Part shown: positions 1,764-50,977 of the stretch, in pieces
Layout: each line of letters begins with the position of its first letter
Position numbering within the stretch: position 1 is the first letter of the stretch
Assembly: GCA_043228905.1 (NCBI GenBank)
Contig: JBHGNT010000001.1
Coordinates: forward strand, 23,312,001-23,376,000
Length of the DNA: 64,000 nt
Direction: 5' to 3'
Origin: Azolla caroliniana
Taxonomy: Eukaryota > Plantae > Polypodiophyta
Made by a program: the position numbers and the translations under genes
The notes under the pieces: model-generated
The model's input: the letters and a program-made list of their open reading frames with translations, nothing else
Told to the model about the DNA's origin: nothing
Database searches by the model: none

Positions 1764-4700
1764 TCACCATTTCATTTTACGGGACCAATCATTGTGTGGC
1801 AAACATTGTCCGATCCTAAGACTCGATTCAAGCTTCACATTTCCAGTCATGCCATCACGAATTTGGATTTTTACACTAGGATCATTCCCCCAATTCACCT
1901 TCATAAATAAAAAACAGTTCAAAATCATTGTTAATATCAAACACTGGTTAATTATTGCTTTTTATGTAGTTTCTAATAGACCATAGGAAATTTGGCTTAT
2001 ATGTATATACCTCAATCATACCAAATGCTGGTGCTCGAACAAAATCACATTCCGGATGGTCACGCAACTGCAAAGGATCTTGTTTCACCACTAGAAAAAA
2101 CACAAGAACATTCAAACATTTTTGACAGTGTCATCACAAGACAAAAAATGGAAAGGGAGAAAATGAAACATGGGAAGAAAACGAAATCAAGTCATTTTAA
2201 TGGTACCAGTAGGGCTAAAGAGACATGTAGCATATATCATTTTATTAGTATCATTAGCCAATTGTTGCAAAAGAAGACTAAAAAATACAAACAAAAAATA
2301 TGAAAGTTGTCTTTTATTTGTATCAATAGGGTTATAACATATAGCATAAATATCTTCTGCATGTTGTATAAATTTTGGATGCAAGAAGTCATAGAGCCAA
2401 GAATTCTTGCCATCACAGCTAAAATTCCTTTCTGCTGTCGCTGTCAACCCACTTGCCATAACTTGATACAGAGGATATGAGAGTTCAATACCTCCATAGT
2501 GCTTTTTAATGTAATTTGCACCCGGAATTAGAACCTATCAAAATGCAAAAGGAAGTTATAATTACTAATGCACTTGCGGGTGGGTTTTCCTCACCTAAAA
2601 ATAGAGTGTGGATAGGAATAGATATCTATGTTGAAGTACATGAAAAACTATATGAATAACCCATCTATGAAAAACTGTATGATATACTCATATTTATATT
2701 CATCATACTTTGATATCTGAATATTCAAGACCGCCCGTCAGAAGGATAACGCAACCAGATGCTCGTGAAATCACATTTAGAAATTGCAATTGGGCAGGTT
2801 TATAGCATTCCCAATCATCATCAGAACAAGGGCATTCAACTCCACTGAGATCTTCACATACCTGCTTATAGACTAACTTACATGAATACATACCAAATCC
2901 CCAACATTTTCGATACTTGTCCATAAATCAACTATGTGCATGAGTCTTGTCTTAAACATGGTCACATTACCTTTTTGGCAGGATTTCCAATCACCACCGA
3001 GCTTGAGACAACTAGTTTAAGAGGAGAATTAGATTGCATAATGGTTTTTTCAAGCCACCTCCTTTGCTCTTGACCTAAAATCTGAATTCCAAAGAAAGAA
3101 GCACAAACCATTTGTTGTCCATAGAAATGTGCAAGATGAAGAATGAATGCAAAAGGATGAAAAACCACTCACCTCACAAAAAGATGAGTTACGAGCCAAC
3201 ATAACATCTCCAATATTGCGTGATGAAGTAGAACTTCCAAATTCTGGAGAATTAGGATCACATACACTACTCCACATATTATGATCCTTGTTTCTAGGTT
3301 CAAGACACCATCCTAATAACAATTACAAACATATCAATATAACACACAAGAAAAAGAATTGTTGCTTGCTTTATGATAGCAATGATGGATCAGCCTTACA
3401 GAGTTTTTGAGAATCTATGATGCATTAGGCAGTACTCAGCCAGTAAATTCTTATGTTTTCACATTATGCGTGCATGTGTTATGAACTACAAGATACATGA
3501 TTCGTGTGCAATAAACTACATTGCTTCATGTCTCCATGAACAAGCACATTAACAAAGGATTGGCGATCAATTTGATGCTCATATATACATTATGAACACC
3601 CAAAGATCCTGATCAGACATTATTAGTTTGGTCTTTGGTTATGCCATGATGAAATGCATTTGAAACAAATAAAAAACAAACATTATTAGTTTGGTCTGTA
3701 TCTGCTCACTTACAAGCACATGAGACATAACTGTCTTTGTAACAGGCCTCTGCATAATATACATCGTTTCTGATTCCATTCTATATAACATGGTGCCAAA
3801 GCTTCAAGTTTCGGTATATTGATGTTTGACAACGCCATGTAGAAAGAATCAGTTTCAGAAGCAGCAGTGATCAAACGAATTTGTGGATGTCCGTCAGTGA
3901 ATCGGACGATGTCAACGAGTAGAACTGTAAATGGGGCTCCTGGCTGTGCGAAGCCACGTCCACAAGGGATATTCAATGGAAAATTAGACAGGTTGACCTA
4001 ACGCAGTGGAAGTTCAAGATAATCACCATTTAATTAGGTTAACAACATCAGACGCCCATTCTGGAATAACATCCACTGTAGATAAGGTCACGTCAGGTTC
4101 CTTATCATCTACACCAGTAGGATCTTCTCTGCTACTTATCCTTGAGAAATGGTCAGGTAGGATAGGAAATGGTCAGTTAGGACGTGATCTTTACTTTAGT
4201 GCACGATGACCTTGGAAGGTGACAATTCATCTAGAGATCCATCCATTGAAACATGTCTTGATGACCAAATAAAGGAGGACTTTGTGTTCTACATAAAAAA
4301 GGAAGTGGACAACTCACAAGCCAGGAGGTCATGTTCAAACTTCTTGACACTGTATATCATGGTGAGCGCCTCCCTTCCAGTGATGGAATAATTGCACTCA
4401 GCTAAGTTATGCTGGTGACCCTCCAGTTGTGCGAAGACTGTGCCAATTGAGATAGTGAGTATCTGTGTGGGTATAGGAAGTCCCCGCTACGATTAGATGA
4501 GTGGACGATGGGTACTCAAGCACGATGCTCTTTGAGTGACTCAAACGACTTCATGCCGTCATCCTGTCATCCATCCACTTTAACTTTTTGAGTGGTTCAT
4601 AGAAGGGCCTCAATTTCTCAACAAGCATTTTGACAAACCATCTGTGGTAGCCTGCATATAACCCATGAACCCTTGTAGTTGCTAGTCATTAGTTGGACAG

Positions 4701-7700
4701 GGTATAGTTAGAATCAAACTAACCTTAGTTTCATCAGTAAAGATACCATCTTTGGAAACTAAATGCATAGTATCCACTCATGCTTAACCCGGAAATATTA
4801 AGGAGAACTGATATTCCTGACTCTTTTATGAATATTTCTTGCAGCAAGGAGAGGTGTTCTGCCCACGCAGGATTGCAACACAAGCCATACACATCTGATT
4901 CAACACCATTCCTCAATCATGATGCAATTATATGATCTGCTCCTTTCTATATGTGCTTTAAAGCACTGGTAAGTCTGAAAGGCATTTGCATGTAGAATAA
5001 TGTGCCTAATTTAGCAGCAAAGGCCATTTTGTGCTAGTTGTCTGGCATCGCCATGATTTCATTGTACCCAAAGAAACCATCAATAGAAGTATGGGCAGCT
5101 GAACCATCTCTAAGCTGCCCCATTTCATCCAGTCGTCGTAGGTAATGATGCTTACTCCTGCACCTGTGTAGAGTATGGCAGGCACAGTTATGTAGTTAAC
5201 CGTAAGTGGGAGCTTGAAACTAGTGTCATCTGCCTCAAAGAGCGCTACTTCTAGGGTGTGCACTTGGTCAGGAGTGTCAAAAAATTCTTCATTAGTATGG
5301 ATAGCAGTGGCAACAGGTATACTGTACCCAATATGTAACTCCGTTTAAACTCTCTGCAAGAGATCATACCAAGATCTTGGGTCTAGCTTAAGTATCTCTT
5401 CGATACTAATTTTGATGTGTTCATCTAGTGTAGATAGTCTGGCTATCGTGTATGCTTCTTGAAGGGACAACTTGACATTTGTGGTCAACAGTTGCTGGAG
5501 GGACACATTGACTTCGATATTGACGAGAGTTGGTGTTGCAGGTTGTCATACCTGGAGAGTTATGATCATGGAGGCATGGCATAGGTTGCTGTGACAGGTT
5601 GGCACTAGGCTTGAGAGGGGGCCACTCGGATAGTCTGTTACAACCTACGGTTCCATCCTCACTAGGTTGTTGTGCTCCTTGTTCTCTGCATAAAAGGTTG
5701 TCGTATTCTATGACCTTTGATGCAAGATTCTGAAAGTTGGATGATGCAGAAGTCTGCTATATAAAAACTGAAGAAGATCCCAAATTGACCAGTATAAAAC
5801 AGTTGGTACAAGTGAAGCGCTCAAGGGGGAGTGTGAGTGTGAAAATGCACCAACAACCCCTCCACCCATGTGTGAATAATAGGAAGGGTACACATTCATT
5901 ATAGTAGGTGGGGAAATCGTTTAAGCTAACCACCTGCTATATCCTTAGAACATATTCTAAAGTTAAGCCATCTACTGCATCCTCTAAGTAGTATCTATAT
6001 TTGCTCACCTATGAGCATATGAAGCATAGCTCTCTTTGTAGCAAAACCCTATTGTAGCCACTCTTAAGCATTCTACATAATATACATTGTTTTTTTTTCA
6101 TTCTTCGTTGTTTTCTTGTCAAGAATTTGTCTATGCAATCATCACATATATCCTCAATATAACAATTTGTATGATTCCTAGATCAAATCCCATTGTTGAC
6201 TTAATTGAAATAAAGAACCAAGGAAACAGACCATAAAATATTTCTTCGTCCTTTTCACAGCATGACCCATTATTGAACTGCCCACCATGAAGAAAGTCTG
6301 TGCACCTACTAAACATAAAAAACAAATGTGAAGCCTCGGTTCTTTTACAACATTCTTCAGAAGGTCTAAAGTTGCGATATCCTATATTAATATACTTGAT
6401 TGTTGGAATTCATTGGTCTGCTCACTTTTTTAATTATGTAACAAATTATATTCTTTGGAGGTCTTTTAATGGCATTTCAAACCTTACTCGTGTGGTTAAA
6501 CCATAGGAAGCTTCCCTTGACCATACTAAAATACTTACGAGGTCAACATATGGAAATAGCTTAGCAAGATTCGCGCATTGTTCATATGTCTTAGCCCATA
6601 GTAGGCTTTCCTTGACCTTACCAAAACCTAGATATCTAAGAAACAGAAACTTAGATATGTTAGCAGGTTTTTTCAAGCAGGAATTTCATGTCCTTGGTTC
6701 ATCCATCCTTAAAGATATTGGGTACCAACGGTTCACCTTTGGTCAAGTATAAGAAGCTGAGGTCATTGTTCAAAACACTCAATATTATTGAACAGCATTA
6801 TGCAAGAAAAACACTATATTTGCCCTATTAATCACCATGTACGAGGATTGTAAAGTGACAGGATTTCATATTATATTGAATGTTCAGACTATCACCTAAA
6901 TTCTAATACAAGCATATCATAAGGATGAATACCTCTAGATGATTGAAGTAGACCTTAAGTTTCAAACTGCTCATCAAATGAAAAAAATTGGAGTGTGGCC
7001 ATTACAAAAAAAAACCTAATTTCGTAAAAGATAATGCAATGTCACTAGAAAATAAGAGTTACTAGTCTGAAAATTAGTAATAGCACAAAGAGACTCAAAA
7101 TAATAGTTCATTCCTAAATAACCTATTCCACTTTTCCATGTGTCCAAGCATCCTACCCTGAAAACCACACAAAAAATCCTTGGAAAAATGAAAAAGAGCT
7201 TCAGAAATACACATTACCAAGCATGCTTTGCGTGATCCATTCCAACCACAGCCACCTTTTCACAAAAAGCTTTCCTCATATGGCAAGGAAGTGAATCACG
7301 ATAGTAACGCTCATCCAACAAGTAGATGTCAATTGTTTGGTTTGGTAGTCCATTATCCATTGTGTACTGCACTCACCAAAGATCACAAGCCCCATTAAAG
7401 ATGCCGTAAATAAATATCAATTTCCTCATCCAGAGTCTAAAGATGGCAATGTTTGTGCATCAAAAAATAAGCACTATGATAAATAGTGAAAACAGCCTCC
7501 GTACTGATATTTTTTATCAATCATAAAAACAACTACATATGTCAGTTGCAAGTTATTCTACAACAAATACGTCATAAGCATGTGGATGTCACACGATATT
7601 GGTATTGTTTTCTTGACAAATCACGCAATACAATCACATGCTTTCAGGAACATTTATGTTATACCTTCCATTGAATGCCACGCCCTGGATCCCTCCGTGG

Positions 7701-10700
7701 ACTACTACTAGGTTCGCCCATTGCATCCAAAAAAATCTGCTTCATCTGGTCTTTTTGAGGCAGGCGCTTATTCCCATATCCCCTATAGCACAATGTGAGA
7801 GCATTAGAACTTAAAGAAAGCTATTTCTCACATTCTATCATCTCTCGATGTCAGAACTAGACCTTTTAGTCTCCTAATCTTGCAGACAGCAAGAGATACG
7901 GAGTTGCATTATTGGAAGCCCCATGTTTATCAAGGTTATTGGAGTTTGCGCATCTTTATTAAAACTTTCAATAAGAGAATTACAGAGCTTAATTCAAGAG
8001 GGCCCCACCATAAGGATGCTCTTAAGATATGCTTCCCACCACAGCGACAGCGGACAATTTTGGATAACTTCAGGAGCTATATAAGGTTGACCATTGGAGA
8101 CTTGAGGTAATATAAAGAAGCCACCGACATGGCATCAGGGATTGAGAAATATTTCCACATTTCAGGATAGGATCCCAAGAAGCTAGCTTATGAAAAAGTT
8201 TAGCCACATTCTAGGATCACTACACAAGCTGCCAGAGTTTTATGTAGAAAAGTGGCAAGGAGTAGACATTGCAGGTGGTTCCCTCTTTACCAGGTTTGAT
8301 AACTCCCCCATCATGTATCACTTTTTCAATAATAAAGTACCATTACAAAATGTACTGTTTTCGTATATGGTAATCCTTCTATTTTCTATTAACAATTTCA
8401 GTGACGTTCTGGATGAAAACAAAACACTAGAGGGAATTATAGATTGTAGAGTACCAGCCATAATCATGACCACCATATGTGCCAAGGATTTGTCTTGGAC
8501 AAATAGAAAGATCTGAACCTGTCGGTGGATGCAGTCCCTTAACACGATGTCCCGGGCACATGAAAGATAGAAACTGCATTAATAAACAAAGTTGAACATC
8601 AAAGAGAAATCTTATAGCAGTATAACTCTCAGCATAATATCAAACAACAATTTTAAACAGAATTCATCACCATACACGTTGCAATTTTGTGTATCAATTG
8701 ATATTTTTTAACAACTTTTCTACTAGCTCTATTTATTTATTTGTGATTCTCAGGACTCGGCCATATTAATCATTGGCAAGAGAACACTGCAACGTATTTT
8801 TCCTGATTTTTCATTCTTATCCCTTAATTGTGCATATTCTATTCTAATTTGATTGAGATCAATGAATCCTATTTGTGCGGTTGGGAGATGCTTTCTCCAC
8901 ATATATAAAGAGACAAGTCTGAGAGAATTCATGCTTTATAGAGACAATATATCTTTTCTTGCCTTTAGTATCTTCCTGGAACTTGTCCCAAGTTTCATGA
9001 AAATAGTTCATTGCTTAAGTCAGTTCTATTGCACCTTTGTCTGGAACTCAACAAGGGACATGGACCTTCTATAGAACGAAGGGTTTCAGGCTGGTAGATA
9101 AATGGGGTGGACTACTCTTATGGCTACGGAAAATTGTAATGGAAAGCATTGGCTCATTTCATTCCAATGGAAGTACGCGATATTTATCCATGTCAATATT
9201 AATTTGATGCATTGCAGGAGGTTAACAAAATTCATACGGTACGTCAATTTCTTATTGGGTATGCTCTGAATCATGGCACATGTTGATGTATCAATTATGC
9301 TTGTTCAAATTTTTGAGTAAAAGGTTTGGAAAACAGGTCTACATATTCTGGACAATTCCGAACTCGATGAATACCAAAGAATGAATATAAAAACTTGATT
9401 AAACACAGTAAGAATAATCAGTTGTATGAGTTACTCTACAATCCCACCCACTTGAGCATAGTCTGGGTTTGAAAGTTGCACCTCAACGCGACTTGAAGCA
9501 AATGCTACATTTCCTGCATAAATTACAAACATTTATATTGTTGGAGCTCTTATGCTCTATAATCCATGTGTATAGAAAAAGTATACCATGGCAGCTGACA
9601 AGAGGAAATCAGGGAGAGAAACACCACCAGCCATGCATGAAACGTTTGCTTGATGCAGCCATGTATCGGTGCAGTTGCATTGTTCATGCCATGCCATGGC
9701 ATCACAATTGATCCATGGTTTATCCATGTACGCCATGTCACCTGTCCTGCTCAAATGAAGTATTAACGAGAAAAATTCACATTCGGGATCAATCTAAATG
9801 CAAAAGTTAAAATTCTGAAAGCTTTATAAAATATGACACTGTCATTGCTACAGCATTTATAAGCATGATTACATGAATGGTCTATCTTCGCACAAAAGTG
9901 CTCTTCTAGAATTATCATTCCTGGACCTAATCACTGAATAAAATTCCTTGTCCATATGTATAGTCTTGAGAGAAAAAAGAAACACTCAACTTTCTATATG
10001 CATATAAGTGGCAGAAGATCATATCATGTACTATGGAAATACCAATAATTAGTCGGTTGGAGGTTGAATCATGGATAAGAAATCTATTCATAGAATGTGT
10101 TTTCCTGTTTGATTATACATCCTCTGTTAATATTTGTGCATTACTACTTTTATACAGCTGCAAGTTGAAACCAGAAAAAGAAACAAAATTCCATTCTATC
10201 ACATTCTCTATTCTGTCTATGTATTGACCAACAAGAAGAGTTCATCAGAAAAGCCTTAGGAGAACACGAGGAAAAATCGGCCATTGGACTTTGCATAGTA
10301 CTGCTTCTGACTTATCCCAACGTTGTACTTTTGGCTGAGATCAAATATGATGTACTTTTGGCATATCCTCAACTGATACTGCAAAAGTTTTTAGATATGA
10401 TGTATTTTTTATCAGCGTAGATAAGACTAAAGTCCGCAGGTAGTAATGTATACGAGGACAATGCAATTGAAGTGGTTCACATATCGGAATGCCTCAGAAT
10501 TAACATACCTTTGCTTCCGTCGCTTCGGAGATGGATATTATTAGAGCAATAGTGTTTCATGCATTGATGCCCAAGCTCTACTTTATGGAATTGAAGTTTG
10601 GGGAGGCAGTACTTTCGCAACCTCGTGGAATGAAATAGAAAATACAAAAGAAATTCCTATGCCTTCCATTAAAGGTTAAGAGAACAACCCTACATGCCAT

Positions 10701-13700
10701 AATGCTTCTAGAATATTGAAGAAGCCCAAAACTGTTTCATCCCATACTCAAAGTAAGGGCAATGCCCTGAAATCACATCCCCAAGGCCATGCAGGAAATT
10801 GGCAGCTTACCAAAGAGAAACGATCGAAACAAATTTCTTTCATTTATTTGGGTTCAAAGCATTTGAAATAGCTAGCAAGATGGAATGTTGAAGAATCCCT
10901 GGATTGGGTGCGGAGGAAAAGAAAGAAAGATATATTAACGTCTTTTAAGAGGCCAAAATGGCCTATAAGACCAAACAAGAGATCACATCTTAAGTTTTGT
11001 CTCGTCTTTGACAACAACAAATCAAAATCAAAATAAATATTACTTAGTAAATATAAAAGTAAATAAGATAAAAAGAGACAAGGGAATCTGGTTTTCGGCA
11101 CAAGTGAGATTCTCAAGTTAGATATATTGTAACTTTTGTCTACGAAAGATCTCTAGCATAGGTCAATCCAGAATTGAGAGATCTCCGAAGCGACGGAAGC
11201 ACCTACGATTACGGGAGATAATGGCCTTTATCTGTCGATGACAAGGGTGTTGAGGTCGTCATCCATGGGGCCGGGGCCTATGTGCATGACAAATTGCTAT
11301 TTCCCGATCTATTGTAACCCCTTTGTTATGTCCTGGTCGGGAGCTCATTTGTGTATCCCTTGATTGACTTGTAGCATTAGTAAGTGTCATGGGGCTAAAG
11401 AAAGTTGTGATTGTTCTTTGTGGATGAGCTTGTGTGGTTGTATTCTTCAACAATTTTTCCCTATTTCTCTCAAGTTCTAGCAAGAAAAGTCCTAGGCACC
11501 GTTGGTCCTCATATTCCATTACCTTGCTTTCTTCTAGAGGTATTCGTGTATATTTGCCTACCTCAATCTATAACTGATGTAATAAAGTTTGCAGTTACCC
11601 TATCACACTACGCAGCACATAGGATAGATGTATGTCCATATAAGGTGGCCTGATGATGTATCCACCCTCTGATATGTGTACAAAGTGTGTCTTATAGTGG
11701 ACCATCTTCATACCAAGTGATGTTTTGGGTTGATCCATGTTATCTTGTTTTCCAAGTTAATAATATCAGTTTGGGTCACTCTATTCTTTTCCACTTTGGT
11801 CATATTTAGATGGGGCGAGTCCAAGCTATATTGGAACGGGCGTAGTGCATAATGCCATGTGACTCGAACCATTGCTACATTTCAGCATACCAACAATGAA
11901 TGTCTCCATTTTCAGCCAGTTGTCTTAATGACATAAGTGCCAACCTTGGGAACCTTCGTTTAGGGAGCTCCCAAAGATGTTAGATACATGTCACTGATTG
12001 GAACAATGCCTCGGTGATTATAGGTGCTGCTCCCATTTCTGCCCGGATTATATTATGGGGCACCGATGCTTTACTCCTTATCATGCGGGCAATCTTTGAC
12101 ACTAAAGATCTCTCTAAATCTTTCCAATGATTTGACTTGTTAAGACTCAGTCCCCATGTTTCTACTCCATAGAGAAGAGTTGATGTGACAAGTGTATCAA
12201 ATAACCACAGCTTAGTCGGTGGCTCTTAGAACTGCAAATGTGCACATTGTCTCTCGAGAGCACCAAGGGTTGCATATCCACGAGAAAGTCGGGCACAAGC
12301 ACCCTCCCATAAGGAGAACCTAGGCCCTGTAAATGTTACTTCTAGGTATGTGTAGGTGCGTGTGTATTCCCCCTTTTCCTCTCCCAAGAAGAATTCCGGT
12401 TCTGATCTTGTTACCCATGCTTCAGTGTTGTTAAACATCATCACTTTAGTTTTATCCATGTTTATTGACAAACCTTTGTCCGTACAAAATAGTTTTAAGG
12501 CATTTAGATGTCTTTGTCATCCCTCCGGAGAGTCAGAAATCAGCACAATATCATCAGCATATAGTAATATTTGTATAGCTTTACCTGCTAGGCATGTCCC
12601 GAACCCCTGAATCTTTCTATGTAATGTGATACCTCATCTATATAGAGACCGAAGAGAGTGGGTGATAGTGGGCATCCTTACTTCACTTCGATTGTGCTAG
12701 CCACCGCCTCTAACAAACCCTTGGAAGACCGCACTTTTCTTAACACAAATTCATAGAGTGCATAGATTCCCCATTGCATATCTGTAGGAACACCAAGGGC
12801 TTCTAACCGTTGCATAAGCCGAGCATGTGGCACAATGTCAAAGGCTTTTCGGAAGTCCACAAAGCAGCAATAAATCCTCTTATTATCGACTCTGCCCTCC
12901 TTAATAAGGGCTCGGAGGGTCAATATGTGATCCAAAGTCGTGAACCCCTTCCGAAAGCCTGCCTGTCCAGCTGAACGGTGGCCATTCCGCTCTGCCCATA
13001 TACTCAATTCTGATTCTAGAAACGAAAGGAACAAGAGAGCACAAACCCATCTTTTACTCAGCAAATTTGGAAACCCTCTAGACGAAATGGAGAACAGGCC
13101 AACATATATCTAAATTTAAGCATTATTGCAACCGTATTGAGACTTAATATTCGGAAAATTACAAGGGCATCTGACCGATGCCCAAGTTCACATTCCAATA
13201 CAATGTGCAAGCCAGTGAGACGTGACCTAATGCGCACACACGCGCACATATAAAAAATAGAAACAGGGATTTGACTGAATATCTAGAAGAAAAAGAGAAT
13301 ATGTGAAGCATTCCCAACAACACTAGGCGTGTTCTTTGCTTATCTACTCAGCCACGGAACCAAACTCATAGAAGATCCCTGATGGTGAAGTTTGGAAATA
13401 AGCTTACTTTTTTCTTTAATTTTCAGTTTACCACTTCAATATCCCCTGCCTACACAGATGGGGAGAGTGTTTTATAACAATTTGCAATCCCATAACCATA
13501 TTGGCCCTTGGTCACCTATGGATCTTAATATACATACAACCATCATCATATTAGAAAATATGTTGAACTAATAAAAACGTTAATGTATGTTATTCTTTAA
13601 TTCATTAATATGTTTGCAAAATGAATGATAGTGTACGACAAATATTAGGAGCATTACAAAGCATTCAAAACTAGTTTTATCAGTGCAGGCATTTAGGATG

Positions 13701-15109
13701 ATTAAGACACAGCATGCACAGGAACACACCCTAAAGAAATGTGATCCAATATGGACAGAGTGTAAGACTTCTTCACTAGGTAGGTTGACCGTATAACTAG
13801 AGGGTGAGCACTGAGGAGCTTATGTTTATAAGATGAAAATGATATGACTGAAATCTAATAGATAAAACTGTTGGATATATAATGTCTCTTCCATTTCTAC
13901 TCTCTTTCTCATTAGTTGATCATTATTCTACTCCTGTTTCTCTCAGGCTGGTTCTTAATGGTCAAATTTAACTTCAGGGTATGCATTTTTAATAAGATTA
14001 AGATGTCGTGTGCAATTGCAGCAACATGAACCATTGAAAAGTGCATTTGAAAATAGTAGTAAGGACATTTACCAGATCCATACATCTGGGTTGCTTGGCA
14101 TTATGCCTTGTACCCAAATTGGCTGTGGCCGATAGTCCACAGATGTACCCGAGCCAAAAGCAATTCTGGTGGTTCGTTTTAGCGGTTTATCTTCGTCGGT
14201 CCCTCTTGCCCTTTCCAACACAGCTACGCTTACTAGTGATGCAATCACAGAAAGTAGCCCCATGATTCCCACAATTCTTAGACATGTTTGTCTGCCGGCA
14301 ACCTTTTCCAAACAAACCCACAAAATAGATACACAGCGATGAAATTATTCATATGGCATAATCCAAATACATAGGCTTTAGAAAGATAAATTTACCCACA
14401 AAGCATAACATAATCCAAAAATGTATAGTTTACATGAGTATATCACTCAGTTCTTGAGAATCACTTGATAGTTCCTCGTTTATCTAAAGTACCCTTGCTT
14501 TTAATCAAATGTAAACAATGGTTACCAAGACATATTAATGAATTACTTAATTTAACTCACGTTTTGATTTGTTTAAGTAGTTACCAAATCATTGCTTGAT
14601 TGAATGCTCTATTCACCTGTCGCTTAATTAGTTAACTATCAATAGGTTAACTGAATAATTAGCACACTAATCACATCTAGTATGAAATGATTCCTAATTG
14701 ACTAATCGAGCCTCATTAAATTCTAAAGTTATTCTGGTAATTTTGGAAGCTGGGGGGTGGTAATACTTAACATACGCCAAAATACATAGAAATATGTAGT
14801 TACCACGAAGGTTATAACATAACCCAAAATATGAAACATAGCATAAGCCAAAATCCATAGAATTATGCAAGGCATAACATAAACTAGAATATATTGACAA
14901 AATGTGCAACATACCATAAGACAAAATACATAGAGATGTGCAATTAAACACGAAGAACCAGCCAAAACACATGGAAGTATGAATTTACATGGAAGCGAAG
15001 AATATATATAAATATAAAAAGTGCTAGGGAATATGCAATTACATGCAAAGTCTAGGACATGCACCAAAAATGGATAGAAATATGAAATTGGCTATAAATC
15101 ATGACCCAG

Positions 15110-15165
<56 letters not shown>

Positions 15166-15401
15166 AAATCATGCCAACAAAACATAAGCCGAAATAGATA
15201 ATCAAAACATTTATGTGGATAAATAGAAAGAAGGGGAAAAAAACAATATGCATAGAAACAAAATGACCCAAAAACACGAGGAGAAGTGGAAGTATAATGC
15301 TCGATCAAATGCTCTTCAGACCAGATGAATAAGAGGAAGGGAAATGCAAGAGACACAGGCAACGAAATTACCTTCCATTTGGGTCTCTTCTTGCGTGCCA
15401 T
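1764..15401 (-). CDS. PhoD-like (alkaline phosphatase D / metallophosphatase fold) type II membrane protein, 14 exons, 547 aa; catalytic ligands largely substituted
   Basis: Hand-spliced exons 5'->3': 15401-15372, 14302-14073, 9746-9628, 9513-9452, 8573-8455, 7782-7665, 7366-7218, 6305-6232, 3312-3173, 3081-2971, 2861-2709, 2534-2411, 2090-2011, 1898-1764. Total is 1644 nt and all phases are compatible. Introns are GT-AG except one probable GC-AG. PhoD landmarks occur in order: RIAFGS, PQPIW, WIWTGDMAYMD, ILGTYGGHDYGW, FLDAMGEP..SPRR, YLLDERYYRD, ILGQEQRRWLE, DDWECY, LLTGGLEY, YQVMASGLT, FGMIEVNW. The N-terminus is basic (MARKKRPKWK) and followed by a hydrophobic segment (IVGIMGLLSVIASLVSVAVL). 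Confidence 0.85.
3900..5300 (-). mobile_element. Degenerate Ty3/gypsy pol remnant (protease, RT, RNase H) inside a PhoD intron
   Basis: Minus-strand fragments: AILYTGAGVSII (decayed DTG aspartic protease, ORF 5006-5263), YHRWFVKML (YYRRFV-like), SIGTVFAQ and AECNYSITGREALTMIYSVKKFEHDLL (gypsy RNase H). Many stops and frameshifts; boundaries approximate. Confidence 0.75.
6440..6830 (-). mobile_element. Highly decayed L1-type LINE RT fragment (intronic)
   Basis: ORF 6446-6676 FLFLRYLGFGKVKESLLWAKTYEQ..LAKLFPYVDLV resembles the L1 RT segment F.P.RYI....QE.I.WAK...Q..LKLDF.KAYD.V. Confidence 0.35.
10430..10830 (+). mobile_element. LINE ORF2 fragment (post-RT region)
   Basis: Reads LLYGIEVWGGSTFATSWNEIEN at ~10578-10643, homologous to LLYGVEVWGGSIPKSTWKEFEN in ORF 33914-34741. 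Confidence 0.65.
10915..13030 (-). mobile_element. 5'-truncated LINE (RT to 3' tail), RTEX/RTE-like, in PhoD intron 2
   Basis: RT motifs QAGFRKGF, CCFVDFRKAFD, VK*GCPLSPTLFGLYID, LLYADDIVL, INMDKTKVM. The 3' terminus GGTCTTATAGGCCATTTTGGCCTCTTAAAAGACGTTAATATA is followed by (TCTT)n at ~10915-10972. Confidence 0.85.
15113..15162. repeat. (AT)n(AG)n compound microsatellite in PhoD intron 1
   Basis: Direct reading. Confidence 0.95.
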
Positions 15402-16619
15402 AACTTCGTAGATGTAGCATCTGAGAAAGAGAAAGGCAAGTCTGATACGAGGGTGGGAGGCAGAGAATGAATGAGTGAGTGAGTGAGTGAGTGAGTGAGT
15501 AGTAGTAGTAACACGGAATATGCTCTTCTTAGTGTGTTAGTGCTTTCCGAAGATCTTTATGTTCATTTTGGGTGTCTCGTTCTCGAAGAGATGAGGAGGT
15601 ACCCGGAAAATAAGTGAATTAATGACTGAAAGTCAGTATGTCAAAATTAATGCCAAAATTAAACCATTTAAGACGAAGCTAAGCAAATTACATAAAGAAA
15701 TAAAGAATGGAAAAAGATGAAGCAAGTCTGAATCAGAAAAAGGGTGAAACTATATATGATTATGTATGTATTGTATGTATGTATGTATGTATGGGATTCC
15801 CCAAAACTTGGCATTCATTTCGTGAAATGTAGAGGGCTTCTCCTTCCTTCTTGTGTGACTCTTGTGGATATGTAGTTATAGAGGCAATCCCGTAATAATT
15901 GCCCTCGGTTTTTCTATACCATACCAATTTCTTATTTAGATCTAAAGAGAACTCTTTGGCATACAACGCACGCGATTTGTCATTAGACATATGTACAGAC
16001 TACCCGATGTGTGTTTCGAACTTTAAATCGGCTTGATTATGAGAGTTTGTACTCTGGGAGCCTTTGACCCCCATTCTGGTTCATCTTGTTTTGCTCAATC
16101 CTTCGGCATCGTAACCTCATACGGAGGAGGGCTTCTTGTGTCTTGTGTGACAATCCTTTCCTCATTGGAAGAGCTTCATTTACTAAATATGTATTATGAG
16201 GATTTGAAAAATGGTAGCTAGTATGCTCCATGTCATAGAATCTCTTAGTAGTTATGATTATTCATCGTGTAAAGAAAAAACGAGCCAAATCTAGGTTGAT
16301 ATTATTTCATGCAACTATTTGTCATGGTTGATGCTTGAGTACAAAAAATTGACATTATTGGTAACGCTAGCTAATGATTAATGTGCTACTTTTCTATTGA
16401 CACCGTATTACTTTCGATTTTTTTTGTTTAAATTTATACTTGTTTAATAGAGAAGAGTAACCCTCATGGAGTTATGGTTTCTATTGGACACATCATCATA
16501 AGGAAAAGGTTTACTATCTTCAATGTCATTCACTAATTACTAATTAAGAGAGAGAGAGAGAGAGAGAGAAATTTATAAGACAATGTCTAATTATCATTAA
16601 AATTGAAAATTACATTAGG

Positions 16620-20713: not shown

Positions 20714-23700
20714 ATGAATACTCAAATGTGGAGCGCTCTCCCTAGCGAGAAGTTGGACCGAAACAACTTCACATCTTGGGAGTACAAGATGCACCAATAC
20801 CTTATCAGCCAAGGCTATTGGGGTTACATCAAGGGAGCACAAGAAAACTGACCCAAGCCGGAAGACGCCGACTATGCAACGTGGGAGCAAGCGGCAAGCC
20901 GAGTGATGTATTGCTTGGCGACATGTGTTCACGACCACATGCTCGGCTACATTCGACAAGCCAAGACGCCGAAGGAAGCGTGGGAAAATCTACGAAAGAT
21001 TTTCACCGCCAACACGACTGTGAGAAAGCTTCAACACCGCCAAGAGTTGAATAACATTCAACAACGGGATATGTCCATTACAAGCTATACCTTGAACATC
21101 AAGGAGCTTTGCGACTTGCTTGGCTCGATAAGCGTCAATGTGGACGATGATGAGATGGTGCAAATATGCCTCGGACAGAGGAAGAGGACGCGGTCGTGCA
21201 AGAAGAGGCCGATTCGGCCAAGGACGTGGCGGACGAGGCGGACAAGGCCCGATTTATGAAAACAACTCGCAATTTCGGCATCAAGACAGAAGCCATCGAG
21301 GAACCTTCGGAAGAAGGGGGAGCTTCCATTCCGGTCCGAACCGACAAAGCTCGGTCGAATGCGGATATTGCGGAAAAATCGGTCACCACGAAGAAGAATG
21401 TCGTAAGAAGATACGCGAGTCGACTTCCACTAGCCGACAACTCACGAACTATGCCATCAACTCTGATTATGATGATCGCGGCGGAATGTTCGTGATGAGA
21501 CATAGAGCGAATTCTATGTCGGCCTCTACTTCCACTAGTGCCTCCAGTTTGGAATGGAAGACGTATAGTTCATCGATTCCGGTGCCTCGAACCATATGAC
21601 GTCGCATCAAGAATGGTTCCGAGAACTTCGAGAGCCAGACCGTCCTGGCTATGTTGAAACCGGAAACGACACTACGCATCCGATTCGGCACATCGACAAT
21701 GTTCCATTCGGAGAAGAAGATAAGGAAACTTATATTAAAAATGTTTTGCATGTACCAAGTATCACGAAGAATTTGGTCTCTGTCGGCCAAATTGTAGAGC
21801 AAGGAATGCAAGTACAATTTAATCAATGTGGTTGCTTCATCGAAAAAGAGGGCCGACTCATCGCTCGCGGACAAAAGAGGGCCGAATGTTCATTCTTGAC
21901 TCACACGAGATGAAATTGGCCATGTTCACAAAGGGCGTGAAAGCCGATTCCGACATAGAGGTATGGCACAAGCCGATTGGCCATATAAATCTCCAAAAGC
22001 TCAAGGCAATGCAATCGAAAGAAGTCGTCATCGGGCTCCCGACACTCGCGGAGAAGGAGATTGAACGCGTGTGTGCCGCTTGCCAATTCGGCAAGCAACA
22101 TCGGCACCCTTTTCCGAAGGAGTGGAATGTGAGCAAAGGCGTACTCAACGTAATTCATTCCGATGTATGGGGTTTGGCTCAGACGACGACATTCGGCGGA
22201 AGCCGATACTACATGACCTTCATTGACGACTTCTCTAGGCACACTTGGATCTACCCGATGCGGAAAAAGAGAGAAGTAATCGGACACTTACAAAATTCAA
22301 GAATCAAGTCGAGACAGCCACGGGCCGACATATACGATGTCTTCGGTCGGATGGAGGCAAGGAGTACTTCTCCGACGAATTTTCGGCGTTTCTACGAAAA
22401 GAAGGAATACGGCGAGAATTTTCGTGTCGACATACGCCGCAACAAAACGGAGTGGCCGGACGCAAGAATCGGCACATCCTCGAAGTGGCACAGGCTATGC
22501 TTAATGAAAAGCACATGCCGAAATCGTATTGGGCGGAAGCAGCTAACATGGCCGTCTATCTCATGAATCGGTGTACGACATTGGGTGTGTACAAACTTAC
22601 TCCGCACGAGAAGTTCTTCGTAAAGAAGCCGGACCTATCGCATGTTCAGATATTTGGCTCCATTGCGTATGTGCACATCCCCGACGAGAAGCGTCAAAAG
22701 CTCGACCCGAAGTCGGAAAAATGTATCCTCGTAGAATACTCACTGGAGCAAAAGGGGTACAAGTGCTACAACCCCTCAACTCGAAAATCTCCCGTAAGTC
22801 GAGACGTCGTTTTCGACGAGTCCGCATCCTGGTACGCACCAGAGACAACTTCGACTTCAATTCCGCTCGACCCGGATTTCGCCGAAATAGAGATAGAAGC
22901 CGAAGATCGACTCACGCGCATGTTCGAAGAAAGCCCAATTACGACAAGGCTTAGTGGGCCACAAAAGCCCCCGAGCGATCAAAGCACATCTCGGTCGAGT
23001 TCGAAGATGGACAAAGGGAAGGCGAAAATGCCGGAGTATGAAGAAGATCACTTCGATGGCAACGAATCAACTCACTCCCTCAATAGTGAGTTTGAAGGCC
23101 TTGAGATCCGGACAAATGGAGCGGAGAACGCCGTAGTATCCACAAACGAGAAGCTCTGCCGATCCACCCGTGAAAAGAACCCCGTAAGCCGATTCGGCTA
23201 CAAGGATCATATGGCGTACCATTACGCCTTTATGATGAAGGTAGCAACAGTACAGGAGCTGGAAACCTTTTCCAAAGCCGCGAAGGACCCGCGATGGATC
23301 AAAGCAATGAACGAGGAGATGTGTGCGTTACGCAAGAACGAGACATGGGATCTCGTTCCCCACTCACTGCACAAGAAGGCAATCGGTTGCAGATGGATCT
23401 ACAAGGTGACGTATAACGCCGATGGCTCCGTAAACCACTACAAAGCTCAACTCGTAGCGAAAGGATACGCTCAGACGCATGGCGTCAACTATGAAGAGAC
23501 CTTTGCCCCGGTGGCAAAGATGACGACGATGCGGACCGTGATCGCACTTGCAACGGCAAAAGGGTGGCACCTCCACCAAATGGACGTCAAGAACGTCTTT
23601 CTCCAAGGCGAATTAGACGAGGGGGTCTACATGGTACAACCACCCGGCTTCGAATCGCGCATTCATCCAAAAGTCGTATGCCAACTCAAGAAGCCACTCT

Positions 23701-24869
23701 ACGGCCTTAAGTAAGCACCGCGTGCTTGGCATTTGAAGATTATGCACTATCTTCATCAAATCGGCTTTCAAATGTCAAAATCTAACAACTCCCTCTATGT
23801 ACGACACAACTCTAGAAGCTTAATTGTCATCATCCTATACGTGGATGATCTGGTCATTGGAGGTGAAAGTCTAGTCGACATCAACAAGGTCAAGTCCCTC
23901 CTCTCCGGAAAATTCGAGATGATGGACATGAAGGAGCTCCATTACTTCCTTGGCATCGAAGTAATTTGGATTCCGGCCGGCATTATGATCTCTCAACAAC
24001 ACTACATTCTCAACCTGTTATACAATTTCGGGATGACGAAGTGTAAATCGATCACTACGCCTCTCGATAGAAACCTCAAACTAGATACCGACTCCGGCAC
24101 GAACGAGTGCAATCCGACTCAATATTGTCAACTGATCGGGAGCCTCATCTAGCTCACGATCACTTGACCCGACCTTAGCTATCCAGTCGGACTCCTCAGC
24201 CAATTCATGCAAAAACCACGCGACACTCACTTGGATTGCGCTAAGCGAGTATTACGATACGTGAGCGACACAATGGATTATGACGTTCTCTACGCATCGG
24301 CCACACCAATACGACTCGAAGGGTACACAAATGTGGATTGGGCTGGCTACAAAGCCGATCGATGATCGACCTCCGGATTTGTCTTCTCCCTCGACAGCGG
24401 AGCGATTTCATGGAGTAGCAAGTAGCAGCCTATCGTCGCTCTTTCGAGTACGGAGGCAGAATACAGGGGCGCAACCGTAGTGGCGTGTGAAGCCATATGG
24501 CTCAAGAGGATTTTGAAGGATCTGGGTGTTCCCATCAAGGATCTGACTCCCCTTTACTGCGACAACATGAGCAGTATTTATCTGGCTCAGAACCCGGTGT
24601 TCCATGCATGCACGAAGCATATCGAAGTGCACTATCACTTCATTCGGGAGCGTGTTCAAGCCGGAGATGTCGACCTTCAACACATCAATACAAATCTTCA
24701 AACGGCCGACATCTTCACGAAGTCCCTAGGAACTGACAAGCTTCGGCAATTCATGTCAGACCTTGGATTGACGATCCCTGACTTGCCAAGCTTGAGGGGG
24801 AGTACAAGCGAGAACCGAATACCGAGCGTACACCGGAGATCATCCGAACCGGATACCAACCCGAGTTGA
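20714..24869 (+). pseudogene. copia-1 gag-pol (frameshifts and stops)
   Basis: EKLDRNNFTSWEYKM, zinc knuckle CGYCGKIGHHEEEC, protease FIDSGASNHM, integrase HSDVWG/RSDGGKEY/PQQNGVA, RT HQMDVKN/YVDDL, RNase H KHIEVHYHF/ADIFTK. Confidence 0.95.
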
Positions 24870-27129: not shown

Positions 27130-29160
27130 ATGGAAAATCAACCGGAGGCTAGCAACATGATGATGATGTTCGAGCGCATGCTATAAGAACAACGCGCGAT
27201 GTCGGAGATAGCGGCATCAGTGGAGCGGCTCGTGCAACGAAACAGGCAATTCAACGGGAAAGACGTGTCGCGGTATCTTCGAGACTACAAGGCGGAGATG
27301 CTACGGTGCGGAATATCGGAAGGACTGCAAGTGACGTCCTTCAACCGGGTGGCGACCGACGGGCTTCAAGCAAGCATCCATGGGCTACGACAACAAAATC
27401 CGACATGGGAGGCGTTTGAAGAAGAGCTAAAGAGGACGTTCGCCATCGAGGATTCCTCCAAGGCGACGCGAAGGGGATTCGAAGATTGGGTGCAGACGCC
27501 GGACAAGGGATTGAAGGTCGTTGATGTGTTTTCGGCATTCGAAAGCCGGTTCGGGAGGTTGTCCGCGAGAGATCAAGCTATCCTCGTACCGGACAAGGTG
27601 ATCATGTTCTTGCGAGCCGTGGACGTCCGGGATCGGAAAGATCTCGGAGTGCTCTTGGAGGACGCGACCACGAAGAGTGGCCTCACCGAAACATGGGAAA
27701 GCATGTGGGATATCGTCGCGCGATACACGAAGAGGGGGCAATGGCTTGCCAACGAGGAAAAGAGGGTTTCGGAACCGAGAACCGGATTGGAAGACCATCA
27801 ACCGAGGGCTCGGGAGACTACAACCGAGAAGGGGATTGATGCATCTACGGTGGAGCAACTATTGAAGGAGATGGAGAATCTGAAGATCGCGATGGTGAAG
27901 AAGTCGGATGACCGCCCCACAAGCTCCAAGTATACGGACCGACGGTGCATATGGTGCGATAGCGCCGAACACGATCGGAGGGATTGCGACGAGCATAAGG
28001 AGGCGCTACGACGGGATCTCATCTACTACGAGGGAAACCGGATTCATTCGATGAACTCTCGAAAGCCACTCCGACCGAACTTCCGGAAAGGCGGCATGAA
28101 GAAGGTGCTCGAGGAGGAATTGGCGGCAAGAATCAACTATGCGACAACCGCGGGAATATGTGTCGGGGAGTCATCGAGCGCAAAGACATCTTTTTGGCCG
28201 GAAGTTCTAGAAAACACCAAGAAAACCGACTCCAACGAGATCCGAAACACCGCGGAAGGCGTCCGGGAAGCTACGGGATGGGAGTGCCCTGTCGACAAGA
28301 ATAGAGTATACGCCCTGTGTCAATTACATGAGGTGTATGTGGACGAGAAACGACGGCGCATGGAGGATGCGGCCGGGCCATCGAAGATACCGGAAAGCTA
28401 GAACTCCGGGGGTAAGGGAAAAGAAAAGGCGACTCCGGCATTTAAGCTCGCCTCGGACATAGAACAACAAACCGACTTGAAAAGAGTGTTCGAGGAAAGA
28501 ATCTTGGATAGCCGGGTAGATTTCTTGCTTTGGGAGCTACTCGGAATAACAAAGAAGGATTTCCACGATCTTCTCGTGGATCTCGTGAAGCGAAAAAGAC
28601 AAAGTACGGAGGAAAATGCTCCAAGGGTGAATGCAAACACCGTTTTAATGAACGACACCGAAGTGGAGGACGAAATTCCGAACTCCCACTATACAAGGCC
28701 ACATTGGGCACGCGCGACTACGGAGACTTCAGTCCGAATCGGCAACATCAAAGAACCCGTGCTAGCATTGATTGATCACGGATCGGAGATCAACTTGATG
28801 TCCAAGGAGTTCTACCGGAAGGGGAAGTGGCCTATTAACACCAACCATGGATGGAAGATTCGGGCGGCCACCAAAGCAACGGAATATCTATTTGCGGCTT
28901 GTCTGGATGTGACGGTGAAGATCGGGGATGTCGAGATTGACCAAAAAAATTTCGTGCAAGATGAGGTTTCACATTCCGTCATCCTCGGCCAACCATTTAT
29001 CACGGCATCACGGATGGAGACGAAGGTGCTCGATAGCGGTGCGGCTTTTGCGCGAATTCGGAGCCAAAACGGTGGGAAATCCGTCCAATTCCTAACGGTG
29101 CCGGCAAATCACGAAAGGAACAAGAGGGAACTCTTATCCCAAGTGAGAATGGATTTTTAA
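27130..29160 (+). pseudogene. gypsy gag-protease ORF (two premature stops)
   Basis: One frame from ATG 27130, with TAA at 27184 and TAG at 28399. Zinc knuckle CIWCDSAEHDRRDC; protease ALIDHGSEINLM..VILGQPF. Confidence 0.9.
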
Positions 29161-32100
29161 AGCGGACTGTTGCGGAGTGGGGAAGTGATAGTCCGAGAAG
29201 CCCCGATACCCCACACAGGAAGAAAACTCTCGAAGCAAAACATGTACGAATCGGTCCGGATGGGGCATCTACGTACACGACCGTAACCGGAGGATTGAAG
29301 AAAGGATACCGACAAGTGGAGGATAAGTTGCAGTCGGCATCAATAATAAAAGAAGATGAAGAAATCGTGGGGATAGTCGAAGAAGTGTTCTATGGGAGCA
29401 CGCTACAACGACTTGAAGAGCTTGCGGAAGATAAAAGCCAAGGGAACCGGGTAGTCCCGGTGGAATCGGTCGAGATGTACGAGATCATTGCGAAAATGGA
29501 TCCAGATACGCTCCGCAAAGAAGAAGCAATGGTAAGTACGAAATACAAGACCGTGGAGAAGAAGGTGAAACCGGCCGCAGGACCACTACCCGCCGATAGC
29601 GAACAAAAGAGGAAAGAAGTCTCGAGAGATCCGACACTTCGGAAGTCCGTGGATATCGGACATGCCTTCATGGATGAGACCCGGAAGAAACTTCGGATCG
29701 GTGGAGAGGGGTTCCTATTACAAAAAGAAGAAGAACGGTTTCGCGAGATGTTGGAGCAACACGGCAAAGCGTTTGCATTTACATCAAGGGAGATAGGGTG
29801 CGTCGATCCGAGAATAGTGGAGCCGATGGTGATCTTCACGATTGACCATGTACCGTGGAACCTGAAGCCGATTCCGGTGCCACGAGCACATATTCCGAAA
29901 GTTATTGACTTGCTCAAGGAGAAGGTGGCGATGGGGATTCTAGAGCCATCAACTGCTCCGTACTCAAATCGATGGTTCACGGTTCCGAAGAAGAATGGGT
30001 CACTCCGATTTATCCAAGACTTGCAACCGGTAAATAAGGTCACGATCCGGAACTCGGGAGTCGGTCCGATAGTGGACGAATTTGCAGAAGCTTTTGCCAG
30101 TCGTGCCATATACTCCATCGGAGACCTATACTCGGGATATGACCAATTCCAACTAGCCGTGGAGAGTCGAGACATCACAACCATGCGAACACCGATGGGA
30201 TTAGTCCGAATGTGCACACTACCACAAGGAGCGACAAACTCGGTTGCTCATATGATGAACGCGATGAACAAGGTGCTTCGAGACTGCATTCCGGAGATAA
30301 CGATGCCGTTCCTCGATTACATTCCGATGAAAGGATGCGTGGTAGAAGAAAAAGATGAGACTATGGATGATCGGGGATGCCGAAAGTTCGTGGTCGACCA
30401 TATTCATGATTGCGAGAAAGTGTTGCGAAAGCTAGAATATGTGCACCTAACACTTTCCGGGGAGAAATCGGCATTCGGGCAAGAAGAAATATTGGTGGTC
30501 GGACATCTATGTGGGCCCTACGGCCGAAGACCGTCACCAACAAAGATCGATGCGATTCAAGCTATGGAGGAAGTATGCGAGTCAACATCTGAAGTCCGAA
30601 GGTTTCTCGGTGCATGTGCATTCTATCACATATGGATTCCGCACTATGCACATATAGCGGACCCGCTCTACCACTTGTTGCGGAAAGGTAAGAAATTCGA
30701 ATGGAAACCGGAACACACCAAAGCCATGAAGAAATTGAAGAAGACACTTCGGAGGGCGGAAGCACTTAAGAAGCCGAGCTACGACCGACCGATCATAGTA
30801 ACGGTTGATACAAGTCCAACCGGTATCGGGTGAGTCATCAATCAAGCCGACTCGGATGGTTCGCGGTATCCGATCCGATTCGGAGCAAAGGTTCTCAACG
30901 AAAGGCAACGTGGATATGCACAAGTCAAAAGAGAACTATGGGGAGTTGTGTCGGCGATAAAATCGGATCGGGATTATTTGATCGGAGCCGAAGTGGTGAT
31001 CGAGACCGATTGTCTTCCGATACTCGGGATGATGCGGTGTTGTACGATACCGGATGTAGCTATGCTAAGGTGGGTTGCATATGTCAAGTCGCTTAATCCG
31101 GAGGTTTGACACATCTCGGGGAAGGACAACGCGGTAGCGGATATGTTATCAAGGGCTCGGTTTAGAGACGACATAACCGAATCGGATAATGAAGAAGTTT
31201 CCGAAGACTACTTCGCGTCGGAGCACATATGTCAAGTGAACGTAATCCGAGAATTCCGGGAAGAAGAATACGAGGGAGAAAGCTTGATGATCGGAAAAAT
31301 GTTACAACAGGCCGAGGATTCAACAAATGATAAAGGAAGAAGAGCCGAGATCCGAAGGAAGAAGAGGCAAGTCCAAAAGTTCTTCTTGGAAAACGGATTA
31401 ATATGGAGGGCGCCGAAAAGACCAGATGGTATACCACTTCGAGTAGTCGGGACAAAAGAGCAACGAAACCGAATAATGTCTGAGTTTCACGAATCCGATT
31501 GGGTTGGACACTGAGGAACATGGGCAACATTTGTGAAGATCAAGCAAAAATATTGGTGGAAGAAAATGTACAAAGATGTCGCGAAGTTCACGGAAAGCTG
31601 CGAGAAATGTCAAGTCTACTCCGATGTTTGACATCGAGATGAGTTACATCCGACATTCTCACCGACAATCAACTTCAAGTGGATGGTCGACATAGTGGCC
31701 ATGCCGACCGGGATCGGACAAAAGAAATACTTGGTATTAGCTCGGGAAGATCTCACGAATCAAGTAGAAGGTCGAGCGCTTCAGAGGAAAACGTGTTCCG
31801 CGGTATGCCAATTTCTTTTGGAGGAAGTATTTTGCAGGTATGGGTGTGTAGGACAAGTGATTGTAGATCGGGGAGAACTCGACTCAGACAAAGCTAGGGG
31901 ATTCTTCGCCAAACACGGAGTTCGGTTAACGCTGACAATGGCATACAATCCGAAGGCCAACGGGAAAATCGAACGAGGACATAGTCCGATCGTGAAAGCA
32001 CTTGCGAAGGCATGCGATGGAAAGGTGAAGGACTGGCCGCAGATGCTTCCGTATGCACTATGGGCAGATCGGACGGCGCATAGCTCCGTAACCGGTTACA

Positions 32101-32792
32101 TGCCGGCAGAACTCATGACCGGACAAGCACCGGTAATGCCGACGGAAACCGCGATCGCAACATGGACAGTGCTACCGTGGAAGGAAGAGATGAGCCGGGA
32201 AGAACTACTAGCGGTCCGGATACGACAACTAGAGGGAAGACTGGCAGACATAGCGGAAGCAATACGCCGACAACAAGAAGCACGATTCCGGAACAAAAGC
32301 CGGTTCGACACAAAGCACCAACTACGACCGAGGAGGATTGAAGAAGGAGATTGGGTGATCGTCTATGATAGTAGTTTGGACCATCAACATACAACGATGC
32401 AGAAATTCGCGAAAAGGTGGTTCGGGCCATACGAGGTTCGGAAAGTCTTTGACAACGGAACGTACCGACTATTCGAGTTGGATGGAACAATACTACGAGT
32501 GCCTATAGCCGGGAAGCGGGTGAAGATTTTCAAGAAGCGGACCGACGACAAACCCTATGTGATCCAAGCCAAGGCCGACAACGAGGAGCAATCGGACGAA
32601 GACCACGGTGATGCGGGAACCGAAAAAAGTGAATTACAACTCATAGTCGACATAAGGGGAGAATCAGAGGAAGCTTTGGGTGAAGACGGATATGAGGAAT
32701 CGAGAACTTCGGCACATACCAGAGGATGTGCGGGTTCGGAGGGGGCGAGTGTCGTAGTGTATTCCACACACTACGTGAAAACCATAAAATAA
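29151..32792 (+). pseudogene. gypsy RT-RNaseH-integrase ORF in the -1 frame
   Basis: LRFIQDLQPVN, DLYSGYDQF, LPQGATNS, FLDYI (decayed xxDD), VTVDTSPTGIG, NAVADMLSR, integrase VDIV..IVDRGE..NGKIERGH and FGPY. Several TGA stops; the ORF ends inside the 3' LTR. Confidence 0.92.
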
Positions 32793-38125: not shown

Positions 38126-38331
38126 ACAGATCTGTTTGTGAAGAAGAGGGACAAAAACAAAAACAAGGATTTTCGCGTGATAATGTTCAGCCGAAGGTAT
38201 CTTGAAAAGTGTGTTGTTATAAGATGTGTGGCCAAATCAGGGTTTTGAAGAAGCCGTCAAACTAGGAGGGGAAGAAGAAGAAGAAGAAGAAGTACACCTT
38301 CGGCCTATCGAGCTAAACTGGATCTGCAGGC

Positions 38332-50971: not shown

Positions 50972-50977
50972 TGAACA

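Follow-up and report, generated by a model that had tools for sequence, protein, structure and literature searches.

Does a gene with the fold of a metal-dependent phosphatase still encode an enzyme once most of its metal ligands are gone, or does its product serve another role? The question is raised by a 64,000-nucleotide stretch of the Azolla caroliniana genome (assembly GCA_043228905.1, contig JBHGNT010000001.1, positions 23,312,001 to 23,376,000), hereafter called the window, to which all coordinates refer. On its minus strand, at 1764..15401, lies a 14-exon gene for a predicted Cys-rich type II membrane protein of PhoD fold, 547 amino acids long, in which two of the nine PhoD metal ligands are left. 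The gene is maintained and spliced, and the loss of its ligands is selective. It belongs to a subfamily, described below, in which ligands have been lost step by step, and the fern protein is probably a pseudophosphatase.

Gene structure and metal-ligand positions

Read from 15401 to 1764, the exons join into 1644 nt with zero internal stops, which confirms the uninterrupted frame proposed in the initial annotation. Exon boundaries were taken from spliced public contigs of four coded studies (runs X1, X2, X3 and X14) with identical joints; all 13 introns are joined in the contigs of X1 and X14, and subsets of them in X2 and X3. Twelve introns have GT-AG boundaries and one has GC-AG (window 2091-2410, donor after 2411). 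Because spliced joints are present in contigs from these runs, which have no RNA label on record and of which the best-matching one is possibly related to the window's source, we consider the gene to be expressed. In run X11, which is probably DNA, intron 7783-8454 is kept and no splice joint is seen.

Exon 1 (15372..15401; aa 1-10) encodes a basic N-terminal tail, predicted to be cytosolic, with a charge of +6 before the transmembrane (TM) helix, and its joint (14300/15370) occurs in four of four runs. The TM helix (aa 20-38) and the FGSG motif are encoded by exon 2 (14073..14302; aa 11-87), and the GDMAYMD motif and first Cys-rich insert by exon 3 (9628..9746). Exon 4 (9452..9513; aa 127-147) opens a land-plant-conserved, non-catalytic segment, aa 135-174; exon 5 (8455..8573) holds the C153-C172 insert and YGGHDY; exon 6 (7665..7782) carries ligand positions 188 and 189. 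In exon 7 (7218..7366) the LLDERYYR motif is kept and a large Cys-rich insert begins, with Cys-rich insert also in exon 8 (6232..6305, 74 nt; joints 3311/6231 and 6303/7216) and exon 9 (3173..3312). Exon 10 (2971..3081) encodes PhoD core and exon 11 (2709..2861) DDWECY and TGGLEY. Exon 12 (2411..2534) is followed by the GC-AG intron (joint 2090/2411, CT..GC ends, in three of four runs), and exons 13 (2011..2090) and 14 (1764..1898, with the TGA stop at 1766-1764) were again placed from spliced contigs.

The ligand positions were mapped by a family-profile alignment to the Bacillus subtilis PhoD structure (2YEQ), in which FASC, GDYIY, WDDHEVENN and GDVH of 2YEQ face FGSG, GDMAY, YGGHDYGWGY and GGLE of the fern gene. 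Two of the three profile-alignment stretches are below significance, so the mapping also leans on motif identity and on an alignment with 25 canonical PhoD-like proteins. The Tyr and His ligand positions were inferred from the motifs of that structure, the His being taken as a ligand in B. subtilis PhoD. An offset of +56 recovers C180, D207, D265, D266, N271, N272 and D436 as they appear in the accessible text of PMC4223295.

Seven of the nine ligand positions are lost, five of them to Gly, and only the Asp and Tyr of GDMAYMD (D90 and Y93) are retained; every codon and replacement named in the initial annotation is as it had stated. From the Fe3+ set (Cys/Asp, Asp, Tyr, His), the Cys is replaced by G62 (GGT, 14149-14147) and the His by E430 (GAA, 2726-2724). 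Where the CaA/CaB set would stand (equivalents of D265, D266, N271, N/D272 and D436), the protein has G181 and G182 (GGTGGT, 8474-8469), G188 and Y189 (GGA TAT, 7781-7776) and G428 (GGT, 2732-2730). Position 188, the N271 equivalent, counts for little as a marker, since 11 of the 25 canonical outgroup proteins have a residue other than Asn there. The GGH codons are not an assembly error, as contigs of X1, X14 and X3 agree with zero differences over them; the single difference in X2 is at 8487.

In B. subtilis PhoD, the accessible text of PMC4223295 reports that activity is lost with any one of C180A, D265A, N271A, N272A and D436A and falls drastically with D266A; all six positions are altered in the fern gene. 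Since single ligand-to-Ala changes are enough to abolish or cripple the bacterial enzyme, the fern protein has very likely lost canonical Fe/Ca/Ca catalysis, as had been proposed.

A Cys-rich membrane PhoD subfamily and its ligand losses

A single hydrophobic helix precedes the domain across the family; in land plants its N-terminal side is basic. About 21 Cys hardly vary within the clade and are missing from the 25 canonical outgroup proteins, and the window protein has six N-glycosylation sequons; a type II membrane topology with a disulfide-rich luminal or extracellular domain is predicted. The PhoD/metallophosphatase fold is likewise a prediction, made on a model of the orthologue P0003, a fern protein 66% identical to the window protein (pLDDT 89.6). 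Its best match is 2YEQ (Z 28.2, root-mean-square deviation 3.4 over 332 residues; Foldseek E 5.5e-11). The fold and membrane anchor of the initial annotation are to this extent supported, the anchor by the single TM helix and the fold by way of the orthologue. Against the gathering threshold of Pfam PF09423 (27 bits), orthologues P0217, P0003 and P0001 score 30.0, 31.9 and 25.3, and among window exons scanned singly the best is a weak match of exon 10 (E 0.019). A phmmer search of P0001 against the PDB gave no match, 2YEQ being reached by the family profile only; the ESM Atlas returned PhoD-labelled clusters only. The protein does not fit a purple acid phosphatase, which has Asp as its first Fe ligand and a His2/Asp/Asn set for the second metal: the order of the DDH and GD.H motifs is of PhoD type even though the motifs are lost, and the best structural match is PhoD.

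A search with exon 2 led to an Adiantum protein and from it to 50 eukaryotic relatives set apart from the 25 canonical proteins. Named members come from chlorophytes, Vitrella, Chara, Closterium, liverworts, Sphagnum, Ceratodon, lycophytes, Psilotum, Pteridium, Adiantum and Ceratopteris. We define the Cys-rich type II membrane PhoD subfamily by its roughly 21 Cys, its N-terminal TM helix and its monophyly, and the gene shares all three. It is sister to the Pteridium/Adiantum/Ceratopteris group, inside ferns (support 100/98), and 66% identical to its nearest matches, and the canonical plant PhoD-like proteins form a separate clade (SH-aLRT 100). Sequence comparison makes it the fern orthologue of a subfamily found in green algae, bryophytes, lycophytes, ferns and alveolates. 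No named seed-plant member occurs among the 50 clade matches or the 30 shorter matches, in which gymnosperms are possibly undersampled.

Four proteins, P0019, P0023, P0021 and P0076 (Ceratodon twice, Chara and Mesen1), form a second streptophyte clade that keeps eight of nine ligands. Sphagnum and Closterium belong to the ligand-losing clade, and an ancient duplication with differential loss is possible. P0036 (Chlamydomonas eustigma) carries about ten tandem copies of the DHD..WNNG active-site loop, possibly an assembly or gene-model artefact.

The dismantling had been presented as an event in a single gene, which is not what the subfamily shows: the loss is lineage-wide, stepwise and partly convergent. 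Algae mostly keep nine ligands, liverworts eight, Sphagnum, Psilotum and P0005 six, Closterium and Diphasiastrum five, Pteridium and Adiantum four, P0003 three, and Selaginella and the window gene two. The initial annotation proposed to check whether a clade shares the Gly substitutions, and in part one does: C62G and D428G, together with H430E, are common to other leptosporangiate ferns, in which positions 188 and 189 are already non-ligand (E/H), whereas D181G, G188 and Y189 are private to the window gene among the land-plant proteins compared. At position 181 the window gene has G, Ceratopteris N and Selaginella S; position 182 is G in the window gene and P0003, and the close relative P0286 reads DGH. 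From these sequences, the DD pair appears to change independently among ferns.

GD.H has become G-L-E in both Selaginella and the leptosporangiate ferns. When the motif columns are left out of the tree (LG+G4, the Selaginella branch being fairly long), monophyly of the two is rejected (p-AU 0.0008), and on this ground we take the change as convergent. Outside the land-plant clade, ligand-depleted members occur in Selenidium, Cardiosporidium, Ancora and further eukaryotes, and the number of origins is uncertain because several of them are long branches. Many ligands are gone from P0104, P0131 and P0136, the Selenidium, Cardiosporidium and Ancora members, while Vitrella and two other alveolate-clade members keep eight or nine; possibly, going by sequence, parallel pseudoenzymes exist in Apicomplexa. 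P0050, which comes with a 21-member cluster, keeps none of seven covered ligands and has most family Cys intact.

The selectivity of the loss was measured against a reference set of 32 members (algae, alveolates, Chara and moss paralogues), of which 31 lack no more than one of their covered ligands and the remaining one has none left. Among columns at least 90% conserved in this set, five of seven ligand columns are changed in the window gene as against two of 83 others (Fisher p=1e-5). Against the 28 non-streptophyte references the figures are seven of nine ligands and one of 77 other conserved columns, the latter as few as in Marchantia, which keeps eight of nine ligands. The claim that the pattern goes beyond random decay, with flanking residues kept, is upheld. 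In run X11, synonymous changes make up five of the six exon differences listed (p=0.003 against neutrality, or 0.05 at worst if four further ones were all non-synonymous), and the sole replacement, H183N, lies inside the dismantled motif. Exon and intron differences in X11 amount to 2.5% vs 6.5% (p=0.02, a significance that is gone if one or two further differences are exonic). No usable dN/dS is available because dS against the Sphagnum-like transcript L001 is saturated. In 13 land-plant rows, 135 columns are invariant. One mark of a pseudoenzyme is the loss of catalytic residues from a scaffold that is conserved and expressed, and this combination is found here.

The segment aa 135-174 stands out, with 76-85% identity among land plants vs 40-44% among algae, at overall identities of 64-66% and 46%. 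It sits just before the DDH loop, outside the catalytic motifs, and its high conservation in land plants makes it a candidate binding surface.

Catalysis, binding and rival explanations

The reading that we favour, and hold to be probable though by no means assured, is that of a pseudophosphatase with a non-catalytic role as a luminal or surface binder or scaffold. On this view the predicted disulfide-rich domain on the luminal or extracellular side would hold a partner or a glycan/lipid ligand instead of hydrolysing it, with aa 135-174 as its likeliest working surface. The ancestral algal and liverwort protein would have been an active Fe/Ca/Ca phosphoesterase, and the non-catalytic role would have become the selected one in the streptophyte clade. 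Loss may have begun with the Fe-site Cys and the CaB Asn pair and gone on to the His and D436 equivalents, reaching the DD pair last; this pair would now be drifting independently among ferns (G, N, S).

Several observations weigh against this reading. No fern in the tree has a longer end branch than the window gene (0.30). All seven fern proteins covering D90 and Y93 keep both, and E430 was gained twice, which would not be expected of a wholly unused pocket. The single functional result found comes from the near-intact Marchantia orthologue Mapoly0022s0145, which has one P1BS element and responds to low phosphate with values of -3.07, +2.05 and +2.62 at 12, 24 and 150 h, according to the accessible part of PMC7672586. 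As 35% of genes changed in the same study, the response is only a weak hint; it fits an enzymatic, phosphate-related ancestor and is silent on the later role. In the window itself, the P1BS consensus GNATATNC occurs at 15516..15523 (strand unassigned), 115 nt upstream of the ATG, and this site is within chance, there being 20 matches in the window vs 16.5 expected.

The strongest rival is a remodelled site in which Asp90, Tyr93 and Glu430 hold one metal (Fe3+, Mn2+ or Ca2+) and the protein acts as a metal or phosphate sensor, or as a hydrolase of altered chemistry, in a pocket opened by Gly. We regard this as possible but clearly the less probable account. Besides the constancy of D90 and Y93 among ferns, it is favoured by the separate arrival of Selaginella and leptosporangiate ferns at G-L-E; His>Glu takes two base changes, and P0005 carries the Gln intermediate. 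However, Selaginella has Asn for D90, H183 shows no constraint, being Q in Adiantum, R in Closterium and N in run X11, and Glu and Gly may merely suit an empty loop structurally. B. subtilis PhoD activity, moreover, requires all three metals, as the accessible text of PMC4223295 states.

The Gly replacements also bear on this rival. They reach 6/15 of the replacements in column 181, 4/12 in column 182 (tied with Ser) and 14/21 in column 428, counts in which rows are non-independent and some are misaligned fragments; at other Asp-rich columns of the algal set Gly is found in 0/34. Gly is thus favoured at the ligand Asp columns, which a loop-conformation or charge effect would explain as well as an enlarged pocket. 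A single transition is enough for Asp>Gly, Glu>Gly or Ser(AGY)>Gly (A>G in the first two), and the window codons fit such steps. Because Gly is one base change from the likely precursors, relaxed selection can yield it, and other lineages carry N, S or Q at former ligand positions. The enlarged pocket of the initial annotation is therefore not established, even though Gly is the commonest replacement at 181 and 428. Nor is its metal-free pocket, given that D90, Y93 and the convergently gained E430 remain.

A broader version, which we rate as speculative and a little less probable again, would have a eukaryotic, disulfide-rich, membrane-anchored PhoD family turn repeatedly from enzyme to receptor, with a G-L-E single-metal or open pocket sensing iron, phosphate or a phosphoester in the lumen or outside the cell. 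It would serve in signalling from algae to ferns and apparently be lost in flowering plants. A flagellar or sperm link was set aside, since Closterium, which lacks flagella, carries the gene.

That the protein is still a phosphoesterase, with low or substrate-specific activity through migrated ligands (e.g., D95, D184, D399), is unlikely. D95, D184, D244, R246, R249 and D399 are indeed retained, and fern orthologues keep the Pfam PhoD match; yet both the CaA and the CaB sets are lost, and intact members conserve the same residues beside a full ligand set, which shows that they are not substitutes for the ligands. Least likely of all is a slow decay toward loss, braked only by folding constraints. 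The ligand count does fall stepwise towards derived lineages, no named seed-plant protein is among the matches and dN/dS is unmeasurable. Yet Psilotum, Pteridium, Adiantum, Ceratopteris and lycophytes, whose lineages parted hundreds of millions of years ago, still have intact orthologues with degenerate sites, and the near-absence of changes at other conserved columns, the synonymous excess in X11 and the invariant land-plant columns all speak against decay.

Other features of the window and known systems

Intron 2 contains a high-copy, broken LINE-like reverse-transcriptase element (10918..13109, minus strand), recognized from motifs by eye and stop-free stretches, with a depth of up to 1296; this very high depth in putative RNA runs may mean that the repeat family is transcribed. 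Degenerate retroelement-like frames, also labelled by eye, lie in intron 8 (window 3700-5760). Elsewhere on the plus strand there are an open reading frame (ORF) with an FHA domain (38317-39429; PF00498, E 2.6e-15), two ORFs with KH domains (50975-53047), probably exons of one RNA-binding protein gene, and remains of long terminal repeat (LTR) retroelements (21823-23714, 27187-32792 and 43799-46930), two of them with RVT_2, integrase and gag-pre-integrase and one with RVT_1, RNase H and integrase.

Pseudoenzymes are already known as a kind, and none was found described in the PhoD family. In the literature searched, which left out most subscription papers, we found no description of the Cys-rich subfamily or of any PhoD pseudoenzyme, nor biochemical or genetic data on its activity or role; the pseudophosphatase papers do not mention PhoD among the matches listed, and no papers were found on the orthologue locus tags or on PhoD in Marchantia. 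The orthologue identifiers were not found in the readable supplements of PMC10413257, PMC6899820, PMC6919629, PMC9110296 and PMC9477723, and the 'phod' matches in PMC8128824 are a species code unrelated to PhoD. What the family offers is a graded natural series (9, 8, 6, 5, 4, 3 and 2 ligands) whose end states are convergent, with tractable models in Chlamydomonas (CHLRE_07g321350), Marchantia (Mp3g03860) and Ceratopteris (KP509_11G076600). The transition from enzyme to non-catalytic protein is directly testable in it, no active twin being evident (the source genome was not searched for paralogues). It points to a membrane function of seed-free plants, and 'PhoD-like phosphatase' labels in these genomes overstate their phosphatase capacity.

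The closest known systems are B. subtilis PhoD (PDB 2YEQ; PF09423; PMC4223295, accessible text), with the same fold by the orthologue model and the same motif order, and the Streptomyces PhoD-type phospholipase D (9UYA; PMC13435022), a second PhoD structure in which, according to the available part of that paper, the Fe-Ca-Ca centre is conserved. The likeness to bacterial PhoD is greatest in algal and liverwort members, which keep eight or nine of the nine ligand positions, whereas the window protein, besides its ligand loss, differs in its N-terminal membrane anchor, its Cys-rich inserts and its N-glycosylation sequons. The canonical plant PhoD-like proteins (spinach P0068 and amaranth P0073) are the nearest outgroup, with about 31% identity in the N-terminal core and a common DDHDYG-x-N[ND] type of motif, but they have nine of nine ligands, a C-terminal hydrophobic helix and no Cys inserts. 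At5g42370, which stands outside our alignment, is presumably the Arabidopsis member of this canonical group.

The PhoD proteins of Babesia, Plasmodium and diatoms are likewise eukaryotic, membrane-anchored and of the endomembrane system, but are described, in the accessible part of PMC10907312, as having a signal peptide, a C-terminal TM helix and predicted metal-binding residues. Pseudophosphatases such as STYX and MK-STYX, in the accessible literature on them, keep their folds, which are other than that of PhoD, but have lost catalytic residues, and a role in binding or regulation is attributed to them. Plasmodium GAP50 (PDB 3TGH; Z 22.4) is of the purple acid phosphatase lineage and not of PhoD, yet by its entry title it uses this fold as a membrane anchor, which provides a precedent for a structural role of the metallophosphatase fold.

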